From the IMG/VR virus record IMGVR_UViG_3300042561_000621: DNA of 64,000 nt. The stretch is one strand, 5' to 3'. The notes beneath the pieces were generated by a model. The model worked only from the letters and a program-made list of their open reading frames with translations. It had not been told where the DNA came from and ran no database searches. The stretch comes from a virus. Its lineage: Duplodnaviria; Heunggongvirae; Uroviricota; Caudoviricetes. A program made the translations under genes and the position numbers. Shown here in pieces: positions 2,408 through 42,176 of this stretch (the stretch's first letter is position 1; every line of letters starts with the position of its first letter).

Positions 2408-2959
2408 TCATTCATCTTTTAATTCTTCTTCATCAGGTTCTAAATAGTCAAGGGGGTTATAACCACTAATAGTAAAGTTACCTTTACCATTAGCTTCTAA
2501 TAAATCTTCTATTGTAGTTTTTTCTCTAACTTCTAATTCATGTATCATAAACCAACTAAATAGTTCTAATACTTCTCTATCCTTATCAACTTGGCCAAAG
2601 TATAAAGTCTTACCCATAGCACTTTGTACTTCTTGTTCAGTTGCTACAAACAAACCATACAAAGTTGTATAAAAGCATTCCAACTCAAATTTATATAGTT
2701 TTAAAGGATTCATAAGCTTTTGATAAGACTTCTCTACATAAGGCTGTTCTATATCCTCTGGAGGCAAACAATCATTAACATATCTATGCCATTTATTAAT
2801 AGACAATACACATCTATACATAAATGTTTTAGTATTTTCACTGTATATAGACCAATCAATAAGTTTACTATTTTCTCTTCTTTCCCAAATATCACCCTTA
2901 TAACTTACTTTTTGTATAGTAGTTGGGCCAATTGTAATTGGTGATTCTATGAGCTTCAT
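2408..2959 (-). CDS. hypothetical protein (183 aa)
   Basis: ORF begins 4 nt after the polymerase exon-3 stop codon. Confidence 0.5.
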   Translation of the reverse strand: MKLIESPITIGPTTIQKVSYKGDIWERRENSKLIDWSIYSENTKTFMYRCVLSINKWHRYVNDCLPPEDIEQPYVEKSYQKLMNPLKLYKFELECFYTTLYGLFVATEQEVQSAMGKTLYFGQVDKDREVLELFSWFMIHELEVREKTTIEDLLEANGKGNFTISGYNPLDYLEPDEEELKDE

Positions 2960-2962
2960 ATA

Positions 2963-3124
2963 TTATTTCTTCCAACAAGGAGCAATTGTAAGTGAACTAA
3001 ACCCACCAGTCTCACAACCAAAGTACTTATATAACATATCACCTTGCACCTTTTCCATCAAAAGTTTTAATTCATTACCAACTTCTTCTGCCATTGGTTT
3101 ATATAACTCATATACTATTTCATC
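2963..3124 (-). CDS. family-A DNA polymerase, exon 3 (C-terminal motif C region)
   Basis: Minus-strand translation DEIVYELYKPMAEEVGNELKLLMEKVQGDMLYKYFGCETGGFSSLTIAPCWKK*. Joined to exon 2 it gives ALVHDEIVYE, matching PolA motif C (QVHDELVFE). Confidence 0.75.
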   Translation of the reverse strand, partial: DEIVYELYKPMAEEVGNELKLLMEKVQGDMLYKYFGCETGGFSSLTIAPCWKK

Positions 3125-3370
3125 CCTACTGTTATTTAATACTCGTTTCCAGTATTAGCCTACCATTTCTAGTAGTGTCGGATCATATCATTAATAGTTA
3201 CATTAACTATTACCTGCCGCTTCAGGAACCACTAGGTCCTTACTCTCCTAAGAGATGATCTCTGCACTTTACCTATGTTATTAGGTCTTAGCTCAATGTT
3301 ACCTTATACTGTTACCATACTTAGGTTTCTTTGAATTCAACAAGTTTAATCTGCACAATGATAAAGGGTT
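3125..3370 (-). mobile_element. putative ORF-less group I intron (polymerase intron 2, about 246 nt)
   Basis: Interrupts codons VH|DE of PolA motif C. The upstream exon ends in U and the intron ends in G. R-like (UAAGACCUA) and S-like (GAUAUGAUCC) elements occur in the expected order. The interval has no ORF. Confidence 0.55.
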
Positions 3371-3499
3371 ATGCACAAGAGCTACAATGTTATTTCTAAC
3401 ATTATATCTATTATTAATGTCTTCCAGATATGTTTTTATAACTGGCAAAGTTACTTTTAATTGATCAGCACAAAAGCCTTGAACATCCTTTATTGTTAT
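3371..3499 (-). CDS. family-A DNA polymerase, micro-exon 2 (about 43 codons; 5' boundary +/-10 nt)
   Basis: Frame with no ATG reads (I)TIKDVQGFCADQLKVTLPVIKTYLEDINNRYNVRNNIVALVH. This aligns to the PolA PMQGTAADIIKRAM...MIMQVH segment that is absent from the flanking ORFs. Confidence 0.65.
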
Positions 3500-3772
3500 C
3501 CTAAAAGCTTTTTATCTTTTAGTTCTATAGCTTCTTATTAACTATAGTTCAGCATATTTTTTTATCCTTGCAAAGTTAATGCAGTGGGATATTAGAGTCT
3601 CTTGGCTATTTATATTCTGTTAGTCTTAACAGGTTCAATTAGCTATGCGTTGCCCCTGACTAGTTTATTACTACTTAGCCTTCGGTTCAGGTTATCATCT
3701 CAGACTTTCCTGCTTAATACTCTAATTATCATTTACTAATTACTTAGTAATGGGACATGTATTTTATCCGTT
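3500..3772 (-). mobile_element. putative ORF-less group I intron (polymerase intron 1, about 270 nt; boundaries +/-10 nt)
   Basis: Non-coding, locally GC-richer and structured interval between SAQRKGPN(G) of exon 1 and KDVQG of exon 2. R-like UAAGACUAACA and S-like CUGAACUAUAGUU elements lie just upstream of the 3' splice site. Confidence 0.5.
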
Positions 3773-5623
3773 AGGGCCCTTCCTCTGTGCTGAAGATTCA
3801 TTTCCTTTAGAATTAGCTTCATCTACATACAACCATCTAGAGGTTGGTAATCTAATTCTTTTACATCTAACACCTTCTTTAGAAGTAGTATCTAACCAAT
3901 GTTTAAGTTTATAAAATTGATTAAAATAACTAGTTAGTATCTTTCCTGCTTCTTCTACTGAACATTTTAAATCATTAGACAAACCTTGTTCAGTCTTACC
4001 ATAGATAACACTAAAATTTAATACTTTGCCTTGAAATCTATAATCAGCACCATCATGACCCTTTTCAGCCATCTCTCTAATTAGTTCAGGTGCATAAGTC
4101 TTTAAAGCAGGACATAAACCCATAGCAGCTACTGTATGAGGATCAGTGTAAGGATCTTCTACTGGTTTATTATCCTTATTAAGTATTTGATTACCCTTGC
4201 TATCAAGTAAATATAACTGCTTCTTCTTTTGATAAAAAGGTGCCAAGCCAGCTTCATCTTTAGCATATGCCATAGCAGTGAGTACCTCTTCTGCTACATA
4301 GTCTATACCAGCTATAACATAGTTGTCCCTAGCAATATAACCACTTCTAACATTAAACTTACCTCTTGCTATAACTTGTTGAAGATTCATTTTATACTTC
4401 TTATCTCCAACAATAATAGAACCAGATGAAGACATTCTTCCTGTGGCGGTTCCTACAGGATTAGTAGTAGCATGTAAGGCTCCACTTATAGGATTAACAA
4501 TACTGTTATACTTACTGATTTCTGTCTTTAGTTTTTCCTGCTTCTTATAAGTTATTAGAGTATTAATAACCTCTTTAGCTTCAGCTTTATTAGTAATGTT
4601 ATCAACATCTAAGTCTTCATCCTCATCATCAGAGTCATCTTCTTCTTCATTATCACTAGTTAAAAACTCTTTCATAATGACAGCATTTAATGCTGTCAAG
4701 TTAACTTTAAACTTACTATTAATAATAGAAGCTAACTTCTTAGGGTTGTTAAATACTTTAGTTACAAGAGGTGATACAGACATACATTGATGCAATACAC
4801 CCTCATCATCTTCTTGTAGTTCTACAGATAATGGCTGATCTAACTGTTTAGCAAGACTAATTTTAGTCTCATTAGATAGTAGTTCAAGCTCTTTAATAAA
4901 GCCAACCATCTTATCCTTATCAATGATAAAACCTACATATTCAACTATAGCTAGAATTCTCATAGCTTCTTGATCTAAGTTGAATGCATACTCTTCATCA
5001 TAGTCTTGTATTAAAGAATCTTTAACACTTAAAATTAAGTTTAACCATTCACTACTAACATCTCTAGCTGAATACTTTAGTTGTTCTGATGATAACAAAG
5101 GAGAAGACCAATCAGATGTTTGTAACTCTTTACTCATTACAACACCAGCAAAGTGTTTCATAATAACAGCTAAACCAGCACCTATTAACTTACCCTGTCT
5201 CCAACCTATACTCACATATAAAGTATTAAACATTACCATAGAACAATATATATTAGTAAGTTCTAAGTTGTAATGATGCTTAATCTGTCTTATTTCAAAA
5301 GCAGCATTATGAGCCCACACTATAAACTTAGAACTATCACTAAGTAATAATAATAAAGGTGTTATATCTACATTATTTAATTCAATAACAATAGGTGCTC
5401 CATCATTACCAATCCAATTAATACTAAGTAATCTAAGCTTATTACAATAAGGATCAATGCCACTACTAACAAGCCTAAATTCTTCTTTAACATACGTTTC
5501 AAAATCAATACCTACATTAACTATATTATTAATAGAAAGAGTTACAAGAGTATTAATAACATACTCTTGTAACTCTTTATTTGTAGTAATGTAGGAATAA
5601 TCATTATTCCTATGTGACAACAT
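3773..5623 (-). CDS. family-A DNA polymerase, exon 1 (3'-5' exonuclease domain, polymerase motifs A and B)
   Basis: TATGRMSSS; DYVAEEVLTAMAYAKDE (motif A-like); GKVLNFSVIYG (motif B); SAQRKGPN matches SAERAAIN. The ORF-track stop at 3764 lies inside the intron. Confidence 0.8.
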
Positions 5624-6137
5624 TATCTTCTTCTATAGTAGTATTTACTAAATCATCAATTGAACTAAATCTATCATTTAATATTCTAGCTTCAGCTTCT
5701 AATTGTTCATCTGATATAGGTAGTTCCTCTGAAGTATTATTTAACATAGCATCTATTTTAAATTGTATTTCAGGATCAAATAAAGTTACATTAGCTTCAG
5801 GGCCAATAACATCTTGTTTAGGATCAAATGATGCAACTCTAACAGACATATTAGAAGGTTGATTATTATAATTATTATTATTATTATAATTATTATAGTT
5901 ATTATTACTAGAAGGATTTACATAAGATGTGTTAGGTTTATAATTAGTATTAATTACTTGTTTTACACCTAATGTTTTACCTAATTGACCAAGTAACTCT
6001 TGAGCTTCAGTTATAAATAGGGCTAAACTTTCTAAGTCATCAATAGTTAACTTCTTAGAAACTTTAGACCCCATTAATAATCTAGCTTCCTTTAACTTAG
6101 CAACAAGACTGTTATTATTTAAAGGTTGTTTTGTCAT
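5610..6137 (-). CDS. hypothetical protein with N/Y-rich low-complexity linker
   Basis: 175-aa ORF overlapping the polymerase start by 14 nt. Confidence 0.45.
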   Translation of the reverse strand: MTKQPLNNNSLVAKLKEARLLMGSKVSKKLTIDDLESLALFITEAQELLGQLGKTLGVKQVINTNYKPNTSYVNPSSNNNYNNYNNNNNYNNQPSNMSVRVASFDPKQDVIGPEANVTLFDPEIQFKIDAMLNNTSEELPISDEQLEAEARILNDRFSSIDDLVNTTIEEDNVVT

Positions 6138-27787: not shown

Positions 27788-27861
27788 TGTTATTCTTTAA
27801 CTCTTATATGTGTAACATGTATGTATATATATTAATGTGCAAACTTAAAGTGGGTATGTAT

Positions 27862-28248
27862 TTAATTCCACTCTTCCCACATAGCTAAAACAAGCTGTAA
27901 TACATTAGTTAAATCTGAATAAATCTCTTTATGATAAGATTCTTTTAGACTATTACTAATAGTTATTAAATTAATTAAAGAGTTAAACTCTATTAAAGTA
28001 AAACCCTTCATGTTTAAATATTTACTAATAGAAATAATCTTTTTTAATTTGGGCCCTTTAGTAGGATATAAATTAAAATAATCTTCTACATTCTTATCAA
28101 GGTATAAATTAAAACCTCTTAGAGGAGAATATATAATAAGTCTTATTTCATCATTTGAAGCATAGTTTTTATTAGCTGATAAGATATAATTAGTTATACT
28201 TTTCTTTTTAAACTTTTCTTTAAAGCATTTAATATAGATAGGTTGCAT
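27862..28248 (-). CDS. paralog-family protein 1 of 5 (conserved C-terminal LQLVxAxWxxWN)
   Basis: N-terminus MQPIYIKCFK and C-terminus ...VLQLVLAMWEEWN. Confidence 0.5.
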   Translation of the reverse strand: MQPIYIKCFKEKFKKKSITNYILSANKNYASNDEIRLIIYSPLRGFNLYLDKNVEDYFNLYPTKGPKLKKIISISKYLNMKGFTLIEFNSLINLITISNSLKESYHKEIYSDLTNVLQLVLAMWEEWN

Positions 28249-36872: not shown

Positions 36873-37190
36873 TTAGTCTTCATCTTCTAAGTAGTAATCA
36901 TCATCACTATCATAATATGAATAGTCTTCATCTTCTAAATCACCATCCCCATCATAATCACCTAATGAAGGAACATTATAACTCCTATAAAGCACTTTAT
37001 CAATTTCACCCTTATCATATGTATATTCTGATAAAGGAGTATAAGCACAAGTTCTAATTTTACTATTGTTATAGTCTCTAGGAATAGCAACAATGTCTGC
37101 TGGATCTACTTCACATAGTAGAATAGCATCATGTCCTGACACTGCTGAACCATAGTGAGGTAAGTATTGCCAACTGCAAACGTGTCAATT
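36873..37190 (-). CDS. 3' exon of split gene C (C-terminal acidic tail); function unknown
   Basis: The frame is open upstream of the annotated start (HVCSWQYLPHYGSAVSGHDAILLCEVDPADIV...) with no ATG, and the exon lies downstream of a LAGLIDADG-bearing intron. Confidence 0.45.
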
Positions 37191-38038
37191 TTTGTTATCT
37201 TAAGGGCTTTTTATCCCCTAATTCTAATCCTTTCGGTTTATAATGATTTAATAAATAATTATTATATTTTCTATTTATTGATAAACATTTACTGTAATAA
37301 ATTTCAGATAAGAATCTATTACCACTTACTTTTAAAGTTAATTTATAAGTGTTATTTTGTTTACTAATAGAAAAGCAGTTTCCATAATTATTTAATATAT
37401 ATTGGCTTAGTTGATTAATAAAAACTTCACTTGCTGATACTATGCAAGCTTGTCTACTTAAACAACCATCTCCATCCCAACAACCTCTTATTAAATCAAG
37501 CATATAAATACTATCTATATTAGGCAAACTAACAGTAAAAGATTTCTTCTGAGTAATTGAATATTTCTCTAAATCTTTAACCATTTGTTTACATCCAATA
37601 CATAACAAAACGTATTTATCTTCTATTACTTTAAGACAATAATTATCTACACCTAAATCTAAAAGAAATTTATCTAATATATCTTTATCTTTTATGTGTA
37701 GTTTTATATTTACTGTTTTGCCTCGATGGATATATCCATCACTTAAAATAAGTCCAAGAAAATAAGCTTTATTTGAAGAATCTATATTTTCAAAGTAATT
37801 TTTGGGCCAATTGTATTTAATCATTATATATTAGTTCAGACTATCTCTTCATCCTATTATACTATAGGATGTCCCTGCCTCGTGGATTTATTATATTCTG
37901 ATACTTCTATCAGGTTCAAAATCTAGTCGTTGCACCTGGTTAATATATTATTACTAACCTTCAGTTGCTGATTGCCATATACTATTATTAGTACTTAGGT
38001 TTCCAGTTTATTTCAGGGATTTATTACCTATTAATTAC
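37191..38038 (-). mobile_element. group I intron carrying a LAGLIDADG homing endonuclease gene (boundaries +/-20 nt)
   Basis: An S-like GAAGAGAUAGUCUGAAC and an R-like GCAACGACUAG element (minus-strand RNA) are present. It shares the sequence blocks tagtcgttgca and agttcagactat with the GH19 intron. The core is GC-richer than flanking DNA and has no ORF. Confidence 0.55.
37195..37824 (-). CDS. LAGLIDADG homing endonuclease (double-motif)
   Basis: AYFLGLILSDGYI and LIRGCWDGDGCLS. Confidence 0.75.
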   Translation of the reverse strand: MIKYNWPKNYFENIDSSNKAYFLGLILSDGYIHRGKTVNIKLHIKDKDILDKFLLDLGVDNYCLKVIEDKYVLLCIGCKQMVKDLEKYSITQKKSFTVSLPNIDSIYMLDLIRGCWDGDGCLSRQACIVSASEVFINQLSQYILNNYGNCFSISKQNNTYKLTLKVSGNRFLSEIYYSKCLSINRKYNNYLLNHYKPKGLELGDKKPLR

Positions 38039-38041
38039 TTA

Positions 38042-38638
38042 ATAGGAGGCCACTACATTTAGCCCATGACTACAAGTTTGATCAATATTATCATCAACAA
38101 AGTTCCTCTGTACCACTACAGGAACATTAAACATTTGTTTAAATGTCTTTGTATATAAATCAAGAAACACTTCTTTATCATCTGTTCTCTTTACAATCTT
38201 ATACATGATTAAGTTGCCCTTTTCATTGATAACAATGTTATTAGCTTCAATGAAGTCAAACAAGCATCTATTAACCCTATAAGAAGGATTAAGTCTAACC
38301 TTTTCCCAGAACTTAATTAAAGGTGTAATAGAAGACTCATCTTGTTCATACATTGCAATAAGTGTTTTGTTTAAAGATGGTGGTAATTGTTCTACTTGGC
38401 CCTCTTTATTAGTATATGTTACTAAACCTTCTCTAGTAATAGTAACACCTAACTTAGTACTAACTTGAGTTACAACATCAAATAGTTTAATAATAGCTTC
38501 TTCATCTTTATTTCTAATAAGTTCTAATACTTTATTATACTTATCTTCATTTGTATATTTATGTATTGTTACTGGTTTGCCCTTTACAATTATATTTAAT
38601 GTGTTATTTGTGCTATTTAAAATATAGTTAATTGTCAT
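38042..38638 (-). CDS. 5' exon of split gene C (200 aa); function unknown
   Basis: ATG at 38638 overlaps the stop of the upstream gene; the product ends ...QTCSHGLNVVASY at the intron boundary. Confidence 0.45.
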
Positions 38639-40289
38639 TTGTTTCTTCTTTTTCTGTATTATTATTTTGATGTTTGTTATAAAAATCAACTAACTCAATG
38701 TAGTGTGTAATATGACTTTTATTTTGTATATTATTATAACCATAAGAATTAATACTACCTTTAATAATAGGATATGTATTATCTATATCTTGTATTAAAT
38801 CCCTCATATTAAAAGCGCCATGTTTAAGTTCTAACAGACCTTCACTAATAAAATGATTTATTAACTGTTTATGTTTTAACTTAGTATCAAATACTTTAGC
38901 ATCTTCTAAAAACATTGTTATAGGATGATTAGGATGTTCTTTAATAAAATCTGTTTTATATTCAATTTCATTAATATAATTAGATCTATAACTGTTTAAA
39001 TATAAAGTAAAGTTACTATTTAAAACACTAAAATCATCTAGTATAAGTTGAATTAAATCAGTCCAACTATCTTTAACAAGACTTACATCATTAACAACAT
39101 ATATGTCTTTATTTATATAATTAAATAGTAAGGGTTTTAAATAAGTATTAACATACTTACTATAAAAGTCCATTGATATATAATAAACATTCTTACTTAG
39201 CAACTCTTTACTAATGTTTAATTCTCTACCAATCTCACCATCATATGTTGATAATCTATAACACTTTTTGTTTGTTTTAACTGATGCTTTTCTAACTTTA
39301 GTTGCTTTAACAAGTCTATCAACTGGTAAGAAATTAGATAAACATGGTAAATTATAGTAATTATTATCAATGTTATTAACAAGAATAATCTTACTAAGAT
39401 CTGATTCTACATCTTCACATTGTTCTAACTCTTTAACTGTTGGAATATAATTTAAATCATTGTAATAATATATTTTAGAGCTATAAAAACGTTCACCATA
39501 AGTAGAAGTATAAGGATTACATTTATAACTCTTTTTAGTACTTAGGTATCTAACAATATCACACAACCATTTTCTATCACTAACAGTTTTACCACTCCAA
39601 TTAACACTATCAGTATTAAAGTTATTCTTATATAAGAAAGTTAAAACATCTGTAAAACATGTAAAATCTTTAACTTTAATAGCAACTAACTCTTTATAGT
39701 CTTCTACTATTTGAGTGATTAAAGAACATAATGTATTCTTTGTTCTAGTACTAAGTTGTACATTCTTATCAGCAGCTTGATCAATGGAGCCAATAGGTAT
39801 ATTAAACACTACAGCATTAGTTCTTAATCTAGATTCAATATAGCCATATACATCACTATTTAAAGTATATTTTAAGTCTTGTAATTTAATATAGTTAGGT
39901 AAACCACCAATTAAACCCACCAAATTGTTAGCATTTGCAAAAGATGTAGCATGTGTTTTAAATGATTTAAACTCTTCATTATAGATTGGTGGCTGAACTA
40001 AAACACCATCAATGTTTACATTAGTTAAGTATTTAGTATGTTCTTTAACATAGTTAGATAAAGTAGTAAAGTCTTCATTTTTAATCTCAAATGAAATAGA
40101 AACACCCGTTAGTTCTTCTTCATTGTTAGTTACATTTTCTTCTAGTAATAGAGAAACAAAGACTTTATTGTTGTCTTTACTAATTACATACTCTCTCTTA
40201 TACTTGGCACCATCACTATCAATTGTAATACAAGTAGCAGTGTATAAGTCTGTATATGCTAAAGGTGACATTCTGCCAATTCCTACATG
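38628..40289 (-). CDS. GHKL-family ATPase, GyrB / type II topoisomerase ATPase-subunit-like, 3' exon
   Basis: In the joined product DVLGG|IGRMSPLAY resembles the G2 box (GGLHGVGVSVVNALS); LSTRTKNTL resembles the transducer QTK loop (SSQTKDKL); LYTATCITIDSDGAKYKREY resembles LELVIQREGKIHRQIY. Confidence 0.45.
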   Translation of the reverse strand, partial: HVGIGRMSPLAYTDLYTATCITIDSDGAKYKREYVISKDNNKVFVSLLLEENVTNNEEELTGVSISFEIKNEDFTTLSNYVKEHTKYLTNVNIDGVLVQPPIYNEEFKSFKTHATSFANANNLVGLIGGLPNYIKLQDLKYTLNSDVYGYIESRLRTNAVVFNIPIGSIDQAADKNVQLSTRTKNTLCSLITQIVEDYKELVAIKVKDFTCFTDVLTFLYKNNFNTDSVNWSGKTVSDRKWLCDIVRYLSTKKSYKCNPYTSTYGERFYSSKIYYYNDLNYIPTVKELEQCEDVESDLSKIILVNNIDNNYYNLPCLSNFLPVDRLVKATKVRKASVKTNKKCYRLSTYDGEIGRELNISKELLSKNVYYISMDFYSKYVNTYLKPLLFNYINKDIYVVNDVSLVKDSWTDLIQLILDDFSVLNSNFTLYLNSYRSNYINEIEYKTDFIKEHPNHPITMFLEDAKVFDTKLKHKQLINHFISEGLLELKHGAFNMRDLIQDIDNTYPIIKGSINSYGYNNIQNKSHITHYIELVDFYNKHQNNNTEKEETNDN

Positions 40290-40359: not shown

Positions 40360-40968
40360 CTATATATTTATTGCTTTATACTTCATACATTCAATTTGAT
40401 TAACATAAGGTCTTACTATTTCTAAGAATCTTCTACCTTCTTTAGTAGACATTCTTAGTCTGTATAGATTTTTATGCTTTGTTATCTTCCAAGTAATATC
40501 CCATTTATCTTGAAAATATTTAACTATTGTTTCATTTTCTTCTTTTGATAAATAAGTACTAAGAACTAATTCCCAAGCATGTATCTTGCCATTTCTTTTC
40601 TTAGGATATAAAGAACCATCATCCATCCACCAAATAGCTAATCCTATAGGAGTTAATCTATTTAAAGCTTTAAGAGGTATAGTTTTTACTTTATTTTTAT
40701 ATAAATATTTATGTAAAACTCTAAAATATTTATGTCCTTTTTCTAAGATAACAGCGGGATATTTCCTATTAACTATCTGTCTAACATTTATATTAGATTG
40801 AAAGATATTTCTAATTAAATTAGCTTTCCAATCTAAATATTCTTTTTGTTTTAGACAGTGAGTAATGGTCAACCTACCATATAATGAAGCATGACTAGGT
40901 TTTGCAACGCAGCCATCTCCAAAAATAATTCCCATCAATATTGAAATGTTTTCTTTTGTTTTTAGCAT
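40360..40968 (-). CDS. LAGLIDADG homing endonuclease (double-motif), located between the R and S elements (P8-loop position)
   Basis: LMGIIFGDGCVAK and LAIWWMDDGSLY. Confidence 0.7.
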   Translation of the reverse strand: MLKTKENISILMGIIFGDGCVAKPSHASLYGRLTITHCLKQKEYLDWKANLIRNIFQSNINVRQIVNRKYPAVILEKGHKYFRVLHKYLYKNKVKTIPLKALNRLTPIGLAIWWMDDGSLYPKKRNGKIHAWELVLSTYLSKEENETIVKYFQDKWDITWKITKHKNLYRLRMSTKEGRRFLEIVRPYVNQIECMKYKAINI

Positions 40969-41098
40969 ATCTTTTCACACTCTTGGCGTGGATATAAAAT
41001 AATATAGATAGTCTCTGAACCTTCAGAAAATATATCTTCTGCTTGGCTGCTGATTGCCCTCAACACTACTTGGTGGGGTTTCCAGCAATTCATCCCGT

Positions 41099-41767
41099 TT
41101 AAAGTGGACAAGGCTTTTTATTTTTACTATACTCATTACTATTAAAATTTTTGCTCCAAGTAAAATTATTTATGACATCCCACTTTCTTTGTAGATACAA
41201 AGCATTATGATTTGTCATTAAATTTACTAAATTTATTATGCTAGTTTGACGACCAACTTTTAACTCATATTGGTTTCTTCTTGCAACTACACAATATCTA
41301 ATGTCATATTCATCATAGATAGCCATTATATATTTAAAGAACGAAGCACAATTTCCATATATTGTAATTCTTTTATTATTAGTTGAATTAACATATACAT
41401 TACCATCACCATCAAAAACACCTCTTAAGAAATCACCAGGATATAATAATTTTCCAGGATTACCTAATAGATCTTTGTTCTTCATACTTTTACTTGGCAC
41501 TAAACCATGACTCATTAAATCAATAACTAACTGTTTGCTATAACAATAGATTAACCAGCATTTATGATACTTTTCTTTTTTAGGTAAACAAAAGAAAGGA
41601 AACACTTCAACTATTCTATCTAATAATTCAACATCATTAATTTTGATTCTGCAACAGTAAGATTGTCCAATATTATTTGTAATAGATCCATCACTATAAA
41701 ATTAAACCTAATAAATAAGCTTTATTTGGAGTGTCAATTATTTTAAATTCATCAGTATATTTCATAA
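41099..41767 (-). pseudogene. frameshifted LAGLIDADG homing endonuclease gene
   Basis: ATG at 41767 gives MKYTDEFKIIDTPNKAYLLGLIL, then a stop. The +1 frame continues FYSDGSITNN...FDGDGNVY, so a single indel falls inside LAGLIDADG motif 1. The N-terminal region is nucleotide-homologous to the HEG at 37195..37824. Confidence 0.55.
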
Positions 41768-41837
41768 TTAGATAATAGTTATTTTATTATCTAATTATAG
41801 CAAAAAGTTATATAAGTTAAACATACCTTATATACTT

Positions 41838-42176
41838 TTATCCACCTAATACATCATTACTAGTACTTTTAGTTGAAAGTCCTACTTTAGTGTATTCATT
41901 CAACATAAACTCTTTACTAATACCATTAGCATAATCTCTAATAGTTATATTATTAGTAAAGTAATTAGGAAGCCAAATGTCTACTGGCCTAGTTATATTG
42001 TGTTTACTATGTTCATCCAGAGAATTGCTGCAAACTTCCTTAAATGCAGCAAGTAAAGTGTTGCTATAAATATTATTTCTAAGAAGACTAATAATAAGAC
42101 CAGATCTTTCTTCATCTATAGAAAAAACATTCTGGTCTAAATTAGTACTAATATTCTCATTTATTGTTGGAATCAT
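41838..42176 (-). CDS. GHKL-family ATPase (GyrB-like), 5' exon
   Basis: EVCSNSLDE (N box, ExxxNSxDE) and ITIRDYANGIS (G1 box, IxVxDNGRGIP); ends ...STKSTSNDVLGG at the intron. Confidence 0.45.
   Translation of the reverse strand: MIPTINENISTNLDQNVFSIDEERSGLIISLLRNNIYSNTLLAAFKEVCSNSLDEHSKHNITRPVDIWLPNYFTNNITIRDYANGISKEFMLNEYTKVGLSTKSTSNDVLGG

Follow-up and report, generated by a model that had tools for sequence, protein, structure and literature searches.

A family A DNA polymerase gene with two small ORF-less inserts resembling group I introns in an uncultured, AT-rich phage

A family A DNA polymerase gene lies on the minus strand of a 64,000-nt stretch of DNA (the window) assigned to an uncultured phage of the Caudoviricetes (IMG/VR record IMGVR_UViG_3300042561_000621), and two small inserts divide it into three exons. 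The first part of the gene is an open reading frame (ORF) of 619 codons (5623..3764), whose product contains a 3'-5' exonuclease domain but breaks off two thirds of the way through a family A polymerase domain. On its own this ORF matches the Pfam profile DNA_pol_A with 85.7 bits, and coverage ends at profile position 291 of 381; DNA_pol_A_exo1 is also matched. An earlier reading made from the letters alone (hereafter the sequence-only reading) held that the polymerase ORF stops at 3764 and that the rest lies downstream. This is correct, and the downstream frames are open and encode the missing parts. The apparent TAA stop begins with the last base of exon 1 (U, 3766). The exons, of 1858, 116 and 162 nt, join to 2136 nt and give one frame of 711 amino acids (aa); the coordinates are collected in Table 1.

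Once the exons are joined, the DNA_pol_A (PF00476) score rises to 126.7 bits (cut-off 34.3), and the match, which includes motifs A, B and C, reaches profile position 360. The 711-aa product is collinear with the intron-less homolog P0001 over positions 1-711 (86.9% identity, 3 gaps). Its alignment to Taq polymerase runs through RxxxKxxNFxxxYG, VQG and VHDE and is gapless across both junctions, with saqrkgpngyvqgfcadql opposite AAERKAFNMPVQGTAADLM and alvhdeivye opposite LQVHDELVLE. The sequence-only reading had put ALVHDEIVYE together by eye as motif C, and exon joining does restore ALVH|DEIVYE. Site 1 is located 5 nt upstream of the Gln codon in the conserved VQG, and site 2 exactly between the His and the catalytic Asp of motif C; both fall in the most conserved codons of the polymerase. 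An acidic, low-complexity run (NEEEDDSDDEDEDLD) is also found inside the polymerase (window 4600-4660, minus strand), and its length differs among homologs.

Relatives of the polymerase define the insert boundaries. Among public proteins, 25 close homologs (65-100% identity) were identified, and they form three length classes: full length (703-756 aa), cut after ALVH (661-683 aa) and cut after GPNG (614-626 aa). The full-length homologs read ...AQRKGPNG[Y]VQGFCADQ... and ...ALVHDEIVYEL.... DNA alignment to the intron-less locus L007 (86% protein identity) shows two clean insertions in the window. Site 1 reads GGAT|AAAATA...AAAGG|ATGTTCAAGG in the window and GGAT|ATGTTCAAGG in the intron-less DNA; its boundary is ambiguous by 1 nt (A on both sides) and was settled by the U/G rule. 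Site 2 reads GTGCAT|AACCC...AGTAGG|GATGAA and is unambiguous. The short exon between the inserts had been put at 129 nt (3371-3499), but intron-less alleles place its start at 3486, 13 nt downstream, which makes it 116 nt and moves 'ITIKD' into the intron. The length of 246 nt proposed for intron 2 is exact; intron 1, estimated at about 270 nt, has 279 nt.

Neither insert is coding, as had been supposed. The longest open stretch in the sense frames of either is 25 codons, each sense frame has 7-14 stops, and neither intron contains the endonuclease ORF that marks a homing-endonuclease-bearing intron. Both inserts had also been described as GC-richer than the flanking DNA. This holds weakly, since intron 2 has a GC content of 35.8% and intron 1 (31.5%) is level with the exons (31.4%); the window as a whole has 26.7%. 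Sequencing error was considered as a cause of the interruption. A 1001-nt segment of the window (3900..2900) was found exactly in two independent assemblies, L008 and L009, and the inserts are therefore not assembly errors.

Every allele, at both sites, has U as the last base of the 5' exon and G (omega-G) as the last base of the insert, a pattern that the sequence-only reading had pointed out for intron 2. Each intron has an internal guide sequence in which the P10 strand is directly 5' of the P1 strand. In intron 1 the P1 guide is 9-10 nt into the intron and pairs with the exon end GGAU, with U.G at the splice site. This helix covaries with the exon (window GGAU/GUCC, L012 GGGU/GCCC, L021 GGCU/GGCC), and U.G is always retained. 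P10 of intron 1 pairs ACAU with AUGU of the 3' exon; in L012 and L021 GUGU gives a G.U pair. P1 of intron 2 is formed by (G)UGCAU and GUGCA(G/C) and has the U.G pair in all five alleles, and its P10 pairs UCAUU with GAUGA of the 3' exon. The P10 helices are short in both introns, and chance pairing is possible.

Intron 2 is recognised by the Rfam model for group I introns. When 701 nt (window 3100-3800) were searched with laxer filters, RF00028 (Intron_gpI) scored 62.0 bits (gathering score 50, E 2.9e-15). Rfam cmscan with default speed filters gave no match in the whole 64,000-nt window or in a 3.5-kb slice (2500-6000); given the 62-bit match, these negatives are filter artefacts. The Rfam alignment identifies P3 as CUUGUUG/CGGCAGG and P7 as GAUCA/UGAUC. 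Two extra hairpins (P7.1 and P7.2) are found between P7 and P3', followed by P8, J8/7 (AAUGAUAU) and P9 with a GAAA loop. A candidate P7 of GGACC/GAUCC was rejected, as GGACC is part of P7.2 in this alignment.

Covariation of intron 2 was examined in five compact site-2 alleles. HNH-bearing introns at the same site were excluded from the set, as only their 3' half aligns. The structure is 84.8% paired, versus 74.7% for shuffled sequences and 35-46% when slid, and 24 of the 58 pairs change on both sides. P7 shows a double swap among alleles, from GAUCA/UGAUC to GACUA/UAGUC. P7, P7.1, P8 and P9.1 are 100% paired, and P7.1 covaries; P7.2 is 68% paired in what is a crude alignment. The plain alignment leaves several helices out of register. 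No match was found by blastn of intron 2 against cultured phages. A scan with a 16-nt motif of intron 2 gave mostly chance matches in coding DNA, and only L153, L160 and L168 look intron-like.

Intron 1 is assigned to group I by its structure and is not a member of RF00028. It belongs to a large family: blastn gives matches of 75-84% to unannotated gaps in unrelated phages, namely phiCD211, Listeria phage LIS04, Bacillus phage BpSp, crAss-like phages and Staphylococcus phages, and a 15-nt core motif of the family is present in at least 120 viral contigs. The intron comprises P1, P2, a P3-P8 core, one extra hairpin between P7 and P3', P9 and P9.1. The helix order P1-P2-P3-P4-P5-P6-P7-(P7.1)-P3'-P8-P7'-P9, with its P3/P7 pseudoknot, is the group I topology. 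J8/7 (AAAAGAUAU) resembles a classical S element. GUUAAGACUAACAG, a candidate for the R- and S-like elements of intron 1, was rejected, as it is a variable hairpin that interrupts the loop of P7.1. Unconstrained minimum free energy (MFE) folding of the window copy gives z = -3.47 (0 of 200 shuffles fold as well) and recovers P1, P2 (with a GUAA loop), P3, P4, P5, P8, P9 and P9.1.

The core of intron 1 was compared across 44 non-redundant compact copies, including that of the window (set A4). Its helices (P3, P4, P5, P6, P7, P7.1 and P8) are 96.5% paired, versus 76.4% for shuffled and 29-39% for slid alignments. Both sides change in 24 of 35 pairs, and none of 500 shuffles matches any of five measures. 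P3 is 100% paired and all 6 of its pairs covary; the extra hairpin P7.1 is 98.6% paired and also covaries. The middle pair of P7 is AU in 39 copies, GC in 4 and CG in 1. A covariance model, R1, was then made from 42 other viral-contig copies, leaving out the window and its polymerase-site relatives. With filters off, across the whole window, R1 matches the core of intron 1 over model positions 1-158 of 158 (115.1 bits, E 1.7e-26). It gives about 130 bits for the site-1 introns of L012 and L021, 113 for LIS04, 107 for BpSp and 66 (65.6) for phiCD211.

The window holds a third group I intron, and both R1 and RF00028 recognise it (Table 1). The intron 1 family is therefore linked, indirectly, to the curated group I model. 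P7 of this third intron is the usual GACUA/UAGUC. A search with RF00028 had been proposed for both polymerase introns; it succeeded for intron 2 and gave nothing for intron 1 at E <= 10. The proposal that two small ORF-less group I introns interrupt the gene is nevertheless supported for both, by their precise absence from homologs, by P1, omega-G and P10, by RF00028 for intron 2 and by the covarying core for intron 1.

Table 1. Positions of the polymerase exons, introns and intron elements, of inserts at related loci, and of other features of the window
Feature	Location	Strand	Details
Exon 1	3766..5623	-	Exonuclease domain, motifs A and B, to GPNG plus first base of Tyr codon
Intron 1	3487..3765	-	279 nt, ORF-less; terminal G at 3487; not in L007/P0001
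Exon 2 (micro-exon)	3371..3486	-	116 nt, encodes (Y)VQGFCADQLKVTLPVIKTYLEDINNRYNVRNNIVALVH; ends in U at 3371; aligns to Taq PVQGTAADLMK...LQVH
Intron 2	3125..3370	-	246 nt, ORF-less; terminal G at 3125; precisely missing from L007
Exon 3	2963..3124	-	DEIVYEL...CWKK plus stop; starts at catalytic Asp-Glu of motif C
Intron 1 internal guide sequence	3753..3760	-	ACAU (P10) then GUCC (P1)
Intron 1 catalytic core (P3 5' strand to P7 3' strand)	3546..3728	-	R1 match
Intron 1 P7 5' strand	3644..3648	-	GCAUA, pairs with 3556..3552; 100% paired in 44 copies
Intron 1 P7 3' strand	3552..3556	-	UAUGC, preceded by A-rich J8/7
Intron 2 internal guide sequence	3351..3361	-	UCAUU (P10) then GUGCAG (P1)
RF00028 match to intron 2	3159..3401	-	Model positions 1-253/253; P1 through P9 of intron 2, beginning in exon 2
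Both compact introns	Window, L021/L022
Compact site-1 intron, site 2 empty	L012
Compact site-2 intron only	L010, L025
Intron-less	L007, L011
Compact site-2 intron plus LAGLIDADG intron beside site 1	L017-L019
LAGLIDADG-ORF intron	L017 (3856-5389)-L020, L023/24		About 1.5-1.7 kb; beside site 1
HNH-like-ORF intron	L004-6 (L004 5101-6133), L026-30		About 1.03 kb; site 2
1.2-kb insert	L012 4283-5473		At residue 598
Third group I intron	RF00028 38070..37817; R1 38022..37833	-	RF00028 46.6 bits, E 1.2e-10; R1 94.6 bits
LAGLIDADG endonuclease ORF	40968..40360	-	LAGLIDADG_2, 129 bits
LAGLIDADG endonuclease ORF	41605..41099	-	

Intron occupancy was determined by mapping the intron-less protein onto 24 related loci; protein-pattern scans of metagenome and viral collections yielded few loci. 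Close homologs show all combinations (none, site 1 only, site 2 only and both), and each insert is absent precisely and independently from close homologs. The split layout is kept in diverged lineages such as L021. Endonuclease ORFs at or beside the two sites in relatives are of the LAGLIDADG_3 or HNH_3 families. The most consistent fit places the boundaries of the LAGLIDADG intron at GTT|...TTG|CAA, which would be 5 nt downstream of site 1. The polymerase family as a whole has four insertion sites within about 60 codons, with both ORF-less and endonuclease-bearing forms. The cores of the site-1b and site-3 inserts are weakly matched by R1 (22-28 bits). Such a distribution of introns and endonuclease ORFs among relatives is typical of mobile group I introns and their homing endonucleases. 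No free-standing endonuclease adjoining the polymerase gene was identified in the window.

Intron 1 of the window is 86% identical to its counterparts in L012 (5532-5800) and L021 (3844-4115), while the adjacent 600 nt of exon 1 is 65-76% identical. That the intron is more alike than the flanking exon suggests either recent lateral spread after divergence of the host genes or strong constraint. Intron 2 of the window is a divergent variant, with 63-68% identity to other site-2 copies. HNH-bearing site-2 introns (L004 5860-6133, L026 4736-5009, L030 4722-4995) align to the compact ones in the 3' half only. The shared half covers P7' through P9 and the 3' end, and the 5' cores are unalignable. 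Such half-shared introns hint at modular recombination between introns.

The polymerase gene is best read as three exons split by two small ORF-less group I introns, removed by RNA-catalysed splicing to yield the complete 711-aa enzyme; the probability of this is roughly 0.9. We infer both that splicing occurs and that it is autocatalytic. One pre-mRNA would span the gene, and both introns would be excised from it. The guide near the 5' end of each intron would pair with the end of the upstream exon (P1, with its U.G wobble) and with the start of the downstream exon (P10). In the P3-P9 core, P7 would hold the guanosine, and an external guanosine would attack the 5' splice site in a first reaction catalysed by the core. 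In the second, the released end of the upstream exon would attack the site that follows the intron's terminal G. The expected spliced junctions are ACGGAU|AUGUUCAAGG and GUGCAU|GAUGAAAUAG (GGAU|AUGUU and GCAU|GAUGA). Retention of intron 1 leads to a stop at codon 620 and retention of intron 2 to a stop at codon 682; skipping of exon 2 gives GGA U|GA, an immediate stop. Accurate removal of both introns is therefore needed for a polymerase. Introns 1 and 2 would be the compact forms of the mobile introns which carry LAGLIDADG or HNH genes at or beside the same sites in related phages.

Several points weigh against this interpretation. The evidence consists of sequence and computed structure. Covariation of intron 2 comes from five sequences, with the structure taken from the window's own copy, and the MFE of this intron is no better than that of shuffled sequences (z = -0.62). 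Even with lax filters and E <= 10, RF00028 misses intron 1 (window 3100-3800) and also L036, which is canonical for the intron 1 family. Subgroup IA is characterised by extra helices (P7.1 and P7.2) that separate P7 from the 3' strand of P3. Two hairpins occupy this position in intron 2 and one, which covaries, does so in intron 1. An IA-like (IA2-like) label is possible on the basis of helix topology and general classification rather than of a subgroup model. Some phage group I introns are spliced in infected cells and not in vitro (PMC11878797), and the autonomy of the introns described here is therefore uncertain.

The last point leads to the alternative that survives best, although it is unlikely: these would be true group I introns whose folding and splicing depend on in vivo conditions or on a maturase- or chaperone-like protein of the phage or its host. 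Both introns have complete cores, stable P1-P9 helices and GNRA loops, which speaks for autonomy, and small ORF-less phage group I introns commonly self-splice. Among such phage ribozymes, that of Twort is cited in PMC3984707. On the other side, the introns have no protein-coding gene of their own, intron 2 has an MFE no better than shuffled sequence, and in Bastillevirinae excision was seen only in infected cultures for 4 of 8 tested intron-bearing genes (PMC11878797).

A second alternative concerns intron 1, which might be some other structured insertion (an unrecognised class of ribozyme or mobile RNA) that is removed differently or retained. The failure of RF00028 on intron 1 and on a canonical relative would fit this, as would a P7 (GCAUA/UAUGC) that departs from the usual GACUA/UAGUC and a family that is unannotated in GenBank records. 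It is nonetheless very improbable. The group I helix order and the P3/P7 pseudoknot are present and covary, the U.G at the 5' splice site is accompanied by a covarying P1, a terminal G and P10, and R1 gives a strong score on an intron also recognised by RF00028. No polymerase is possible unless intron 1 is removed.

Slightly less probable still is a decaying pseudogene, or a gene whose only product is the truncated 619-aa protein annotated by gene callers, with the downstream pieces as relics. Exons 2 and 3 have no stops or frameshifts and encode protein 90-92% identical to an intact homolog; motif C and the C-terminus are intact, and diverged lineages, L021 for example, have retained the split layout. 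The 619-aa protein would be without a catalytic carboxylate motif. An assembly or sequencing artefact, an intein or translational bypass, for which nothing speaks beyond the interrupted ORF, can be dismissed given the exact match in two independent assemblies, inserts of 279 and 246 nt whose stops in every sense frame mean that they cannot be inteins, and a conserved RNA structure in inserts far longer than known bypass gaps.

The sequence-only reading regarded small ORF-less introns and so short an exon as unusual in a viral polymerase. This view is not supported; the arrangement is a further example of a documented kind (PMC11878797, PMC3984707), in a new uncultured AT-rich phage lineage. 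The record of group I introns in polymerase genes of phages goes back to SPO1 and Bastille (cited in PMC3984707 and PMC11878797). Homing endonucleases recognise conserved sequence, which is why introns of phages target conserved genes, polymerases among them (PMC3984707). In one phage set 32 of 45 introns had an endonuclease and 13 had none, and the IA2 and IA3 models gave most matches; exon skipping has been observed in phages, and so has a small exon with an intron on either side (PMC11878797).

Bacillus phages (SPO1, Bastille and Bastillevirinae/Herelleviridae) likewise have family A polymerase genes with IA-type introns in conserved codons (PMC11878797; SPO1 and Bastille are also cited in PMC3984707). 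Two or three introns per gene are possible, some of them ORF-less, and intron content differs among alleles; small internal exons between introns occur in a ribonucleotide reductase gene (PMC11878797). Unlike those phages, the present lineage is uncultured, very AT-rich and known only through metagenome assemblies, and both of its polymerase introns are ORF-less. Its polymerase shares no more than about 25-30% identity with those of the cultured phages that were searched.

The Twort phage has one gene with three group I introns (PMC3073962). In that gene, orf142, several small group I introns are separated by short exons, with an IA-type core and extra P7-P3' helices, but it is a different host gene, encoding a tail tube protein, and shows exon skipping (PMC11878797). 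Here, unlike in orf142, skipping of exon 2 leads to an immediate stop, and alternative splicing therefore cannot yield a longer variant protein. The 3' end ...UAACAUnAnUG probably resembles that of the Twort ribozyme. The relatives also recall collaborative homing, in which ORF-less introns are combined with endonucleases that target the same site (PMC3984707), in that an ORF-less site-1 intron in some phages is matched by a LAGLIDADG intron 5 nt away in others. Site 2 has compact and HNH-bearing versions.

The main value of these results lies in the correction of annotation, in the blind spot of Rfam for the intron 1 family and in the intron density of this genome. The polymerase should be annotated as a complete 711-aa enzyme rather than the reported 619-aa fragment, and many relatives are alike in this. 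Default Rfam filters lost a 62-bit match (E 3e-15) in 3.5 kb or more of AT-rich DNA, and negative scans of such genomes are unreliable. Intron 2 is a full-length RF00028 match above the gathering score, whereas the intron 1 family, with at least 120 copies, goes undetected by that model. Rfam also gave no match at the phiCD211, LIS04 and BpSp loci, even for an Intron_gpI annotated in GenBank. The intron content of uncultured phages is probably undercounted, because the filters miss intron 2 and the model misses the intron 1 family. Four sites within about 60 codons offer a compact natural system for following the turnover of introns and homing endonucleases, although no principle is changed.

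A more tentative proposal is that intron 1 represents a widespread subclass of phage group I introns, invisible to the standard Rfam model, with the variant P7 GCAUA/UAUGC and a single P7.1, and often in tandem across a very short exon. This is doubtful at present; the named tandem cases with a very short exon are the window, phiCD211, L048 and L153. If it were true, annotation would have overlooked introns in many of the phage genes that databases list as 'truncated' or 'split'. Tandem pairs might then splice in a coupled or regulated manner, since skipping of the micro-exon aborts the protein.

Tandem group I introns with very short exons recur in unrelated phages (L001 2328-2867, L048 3291-3845, L153 1472-3830). 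In phiCD211 the Intron_gpI annotated in GenBank is preceded, at a distance of about 80 nt, by a copy of the intron 1 family, between the tail genes. In L048 a copy of this family is followed by an RF00028 match, and L153 has three RF00028 matches and a copy like intron 2 within 2.5 kb.

Elsewhere in the window introns and endonuclease genes are also found; in the 64 kb, group I introns and LAGLIDADG ORFs each number at least three. A LAGLIDADG_3 ORF of 209 aa (37195-37824, minus strand) comes directly after the third intron. This intron separates ORFs 38689..38039 and 37142..36873, which look like halves of one gene. The other two LAGLIDADG ORFs (window 40360-42176) are flanked by a 112-aa fragment (42176..41838) with weak similarity to the GHKL ATPase fold and by a 547-aa ORF (40271..38628). 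A weak R1 match (41099..40959; 15.5 bits, E 0.069) is present just upstream of the ORF at 40968..40360. This region probably contains one or two more introns in a topoisomerase-like gene. Another weak R1 match, at 27809-27876 on the minus strand (16.1 bits, E 0.048), may be due to chance. The ORF upstream of the polymerase (window 5610-6137, minus strand) has a low-complexity run rich in Asn and Tyr (NNNYNNYNNNNNYNN).

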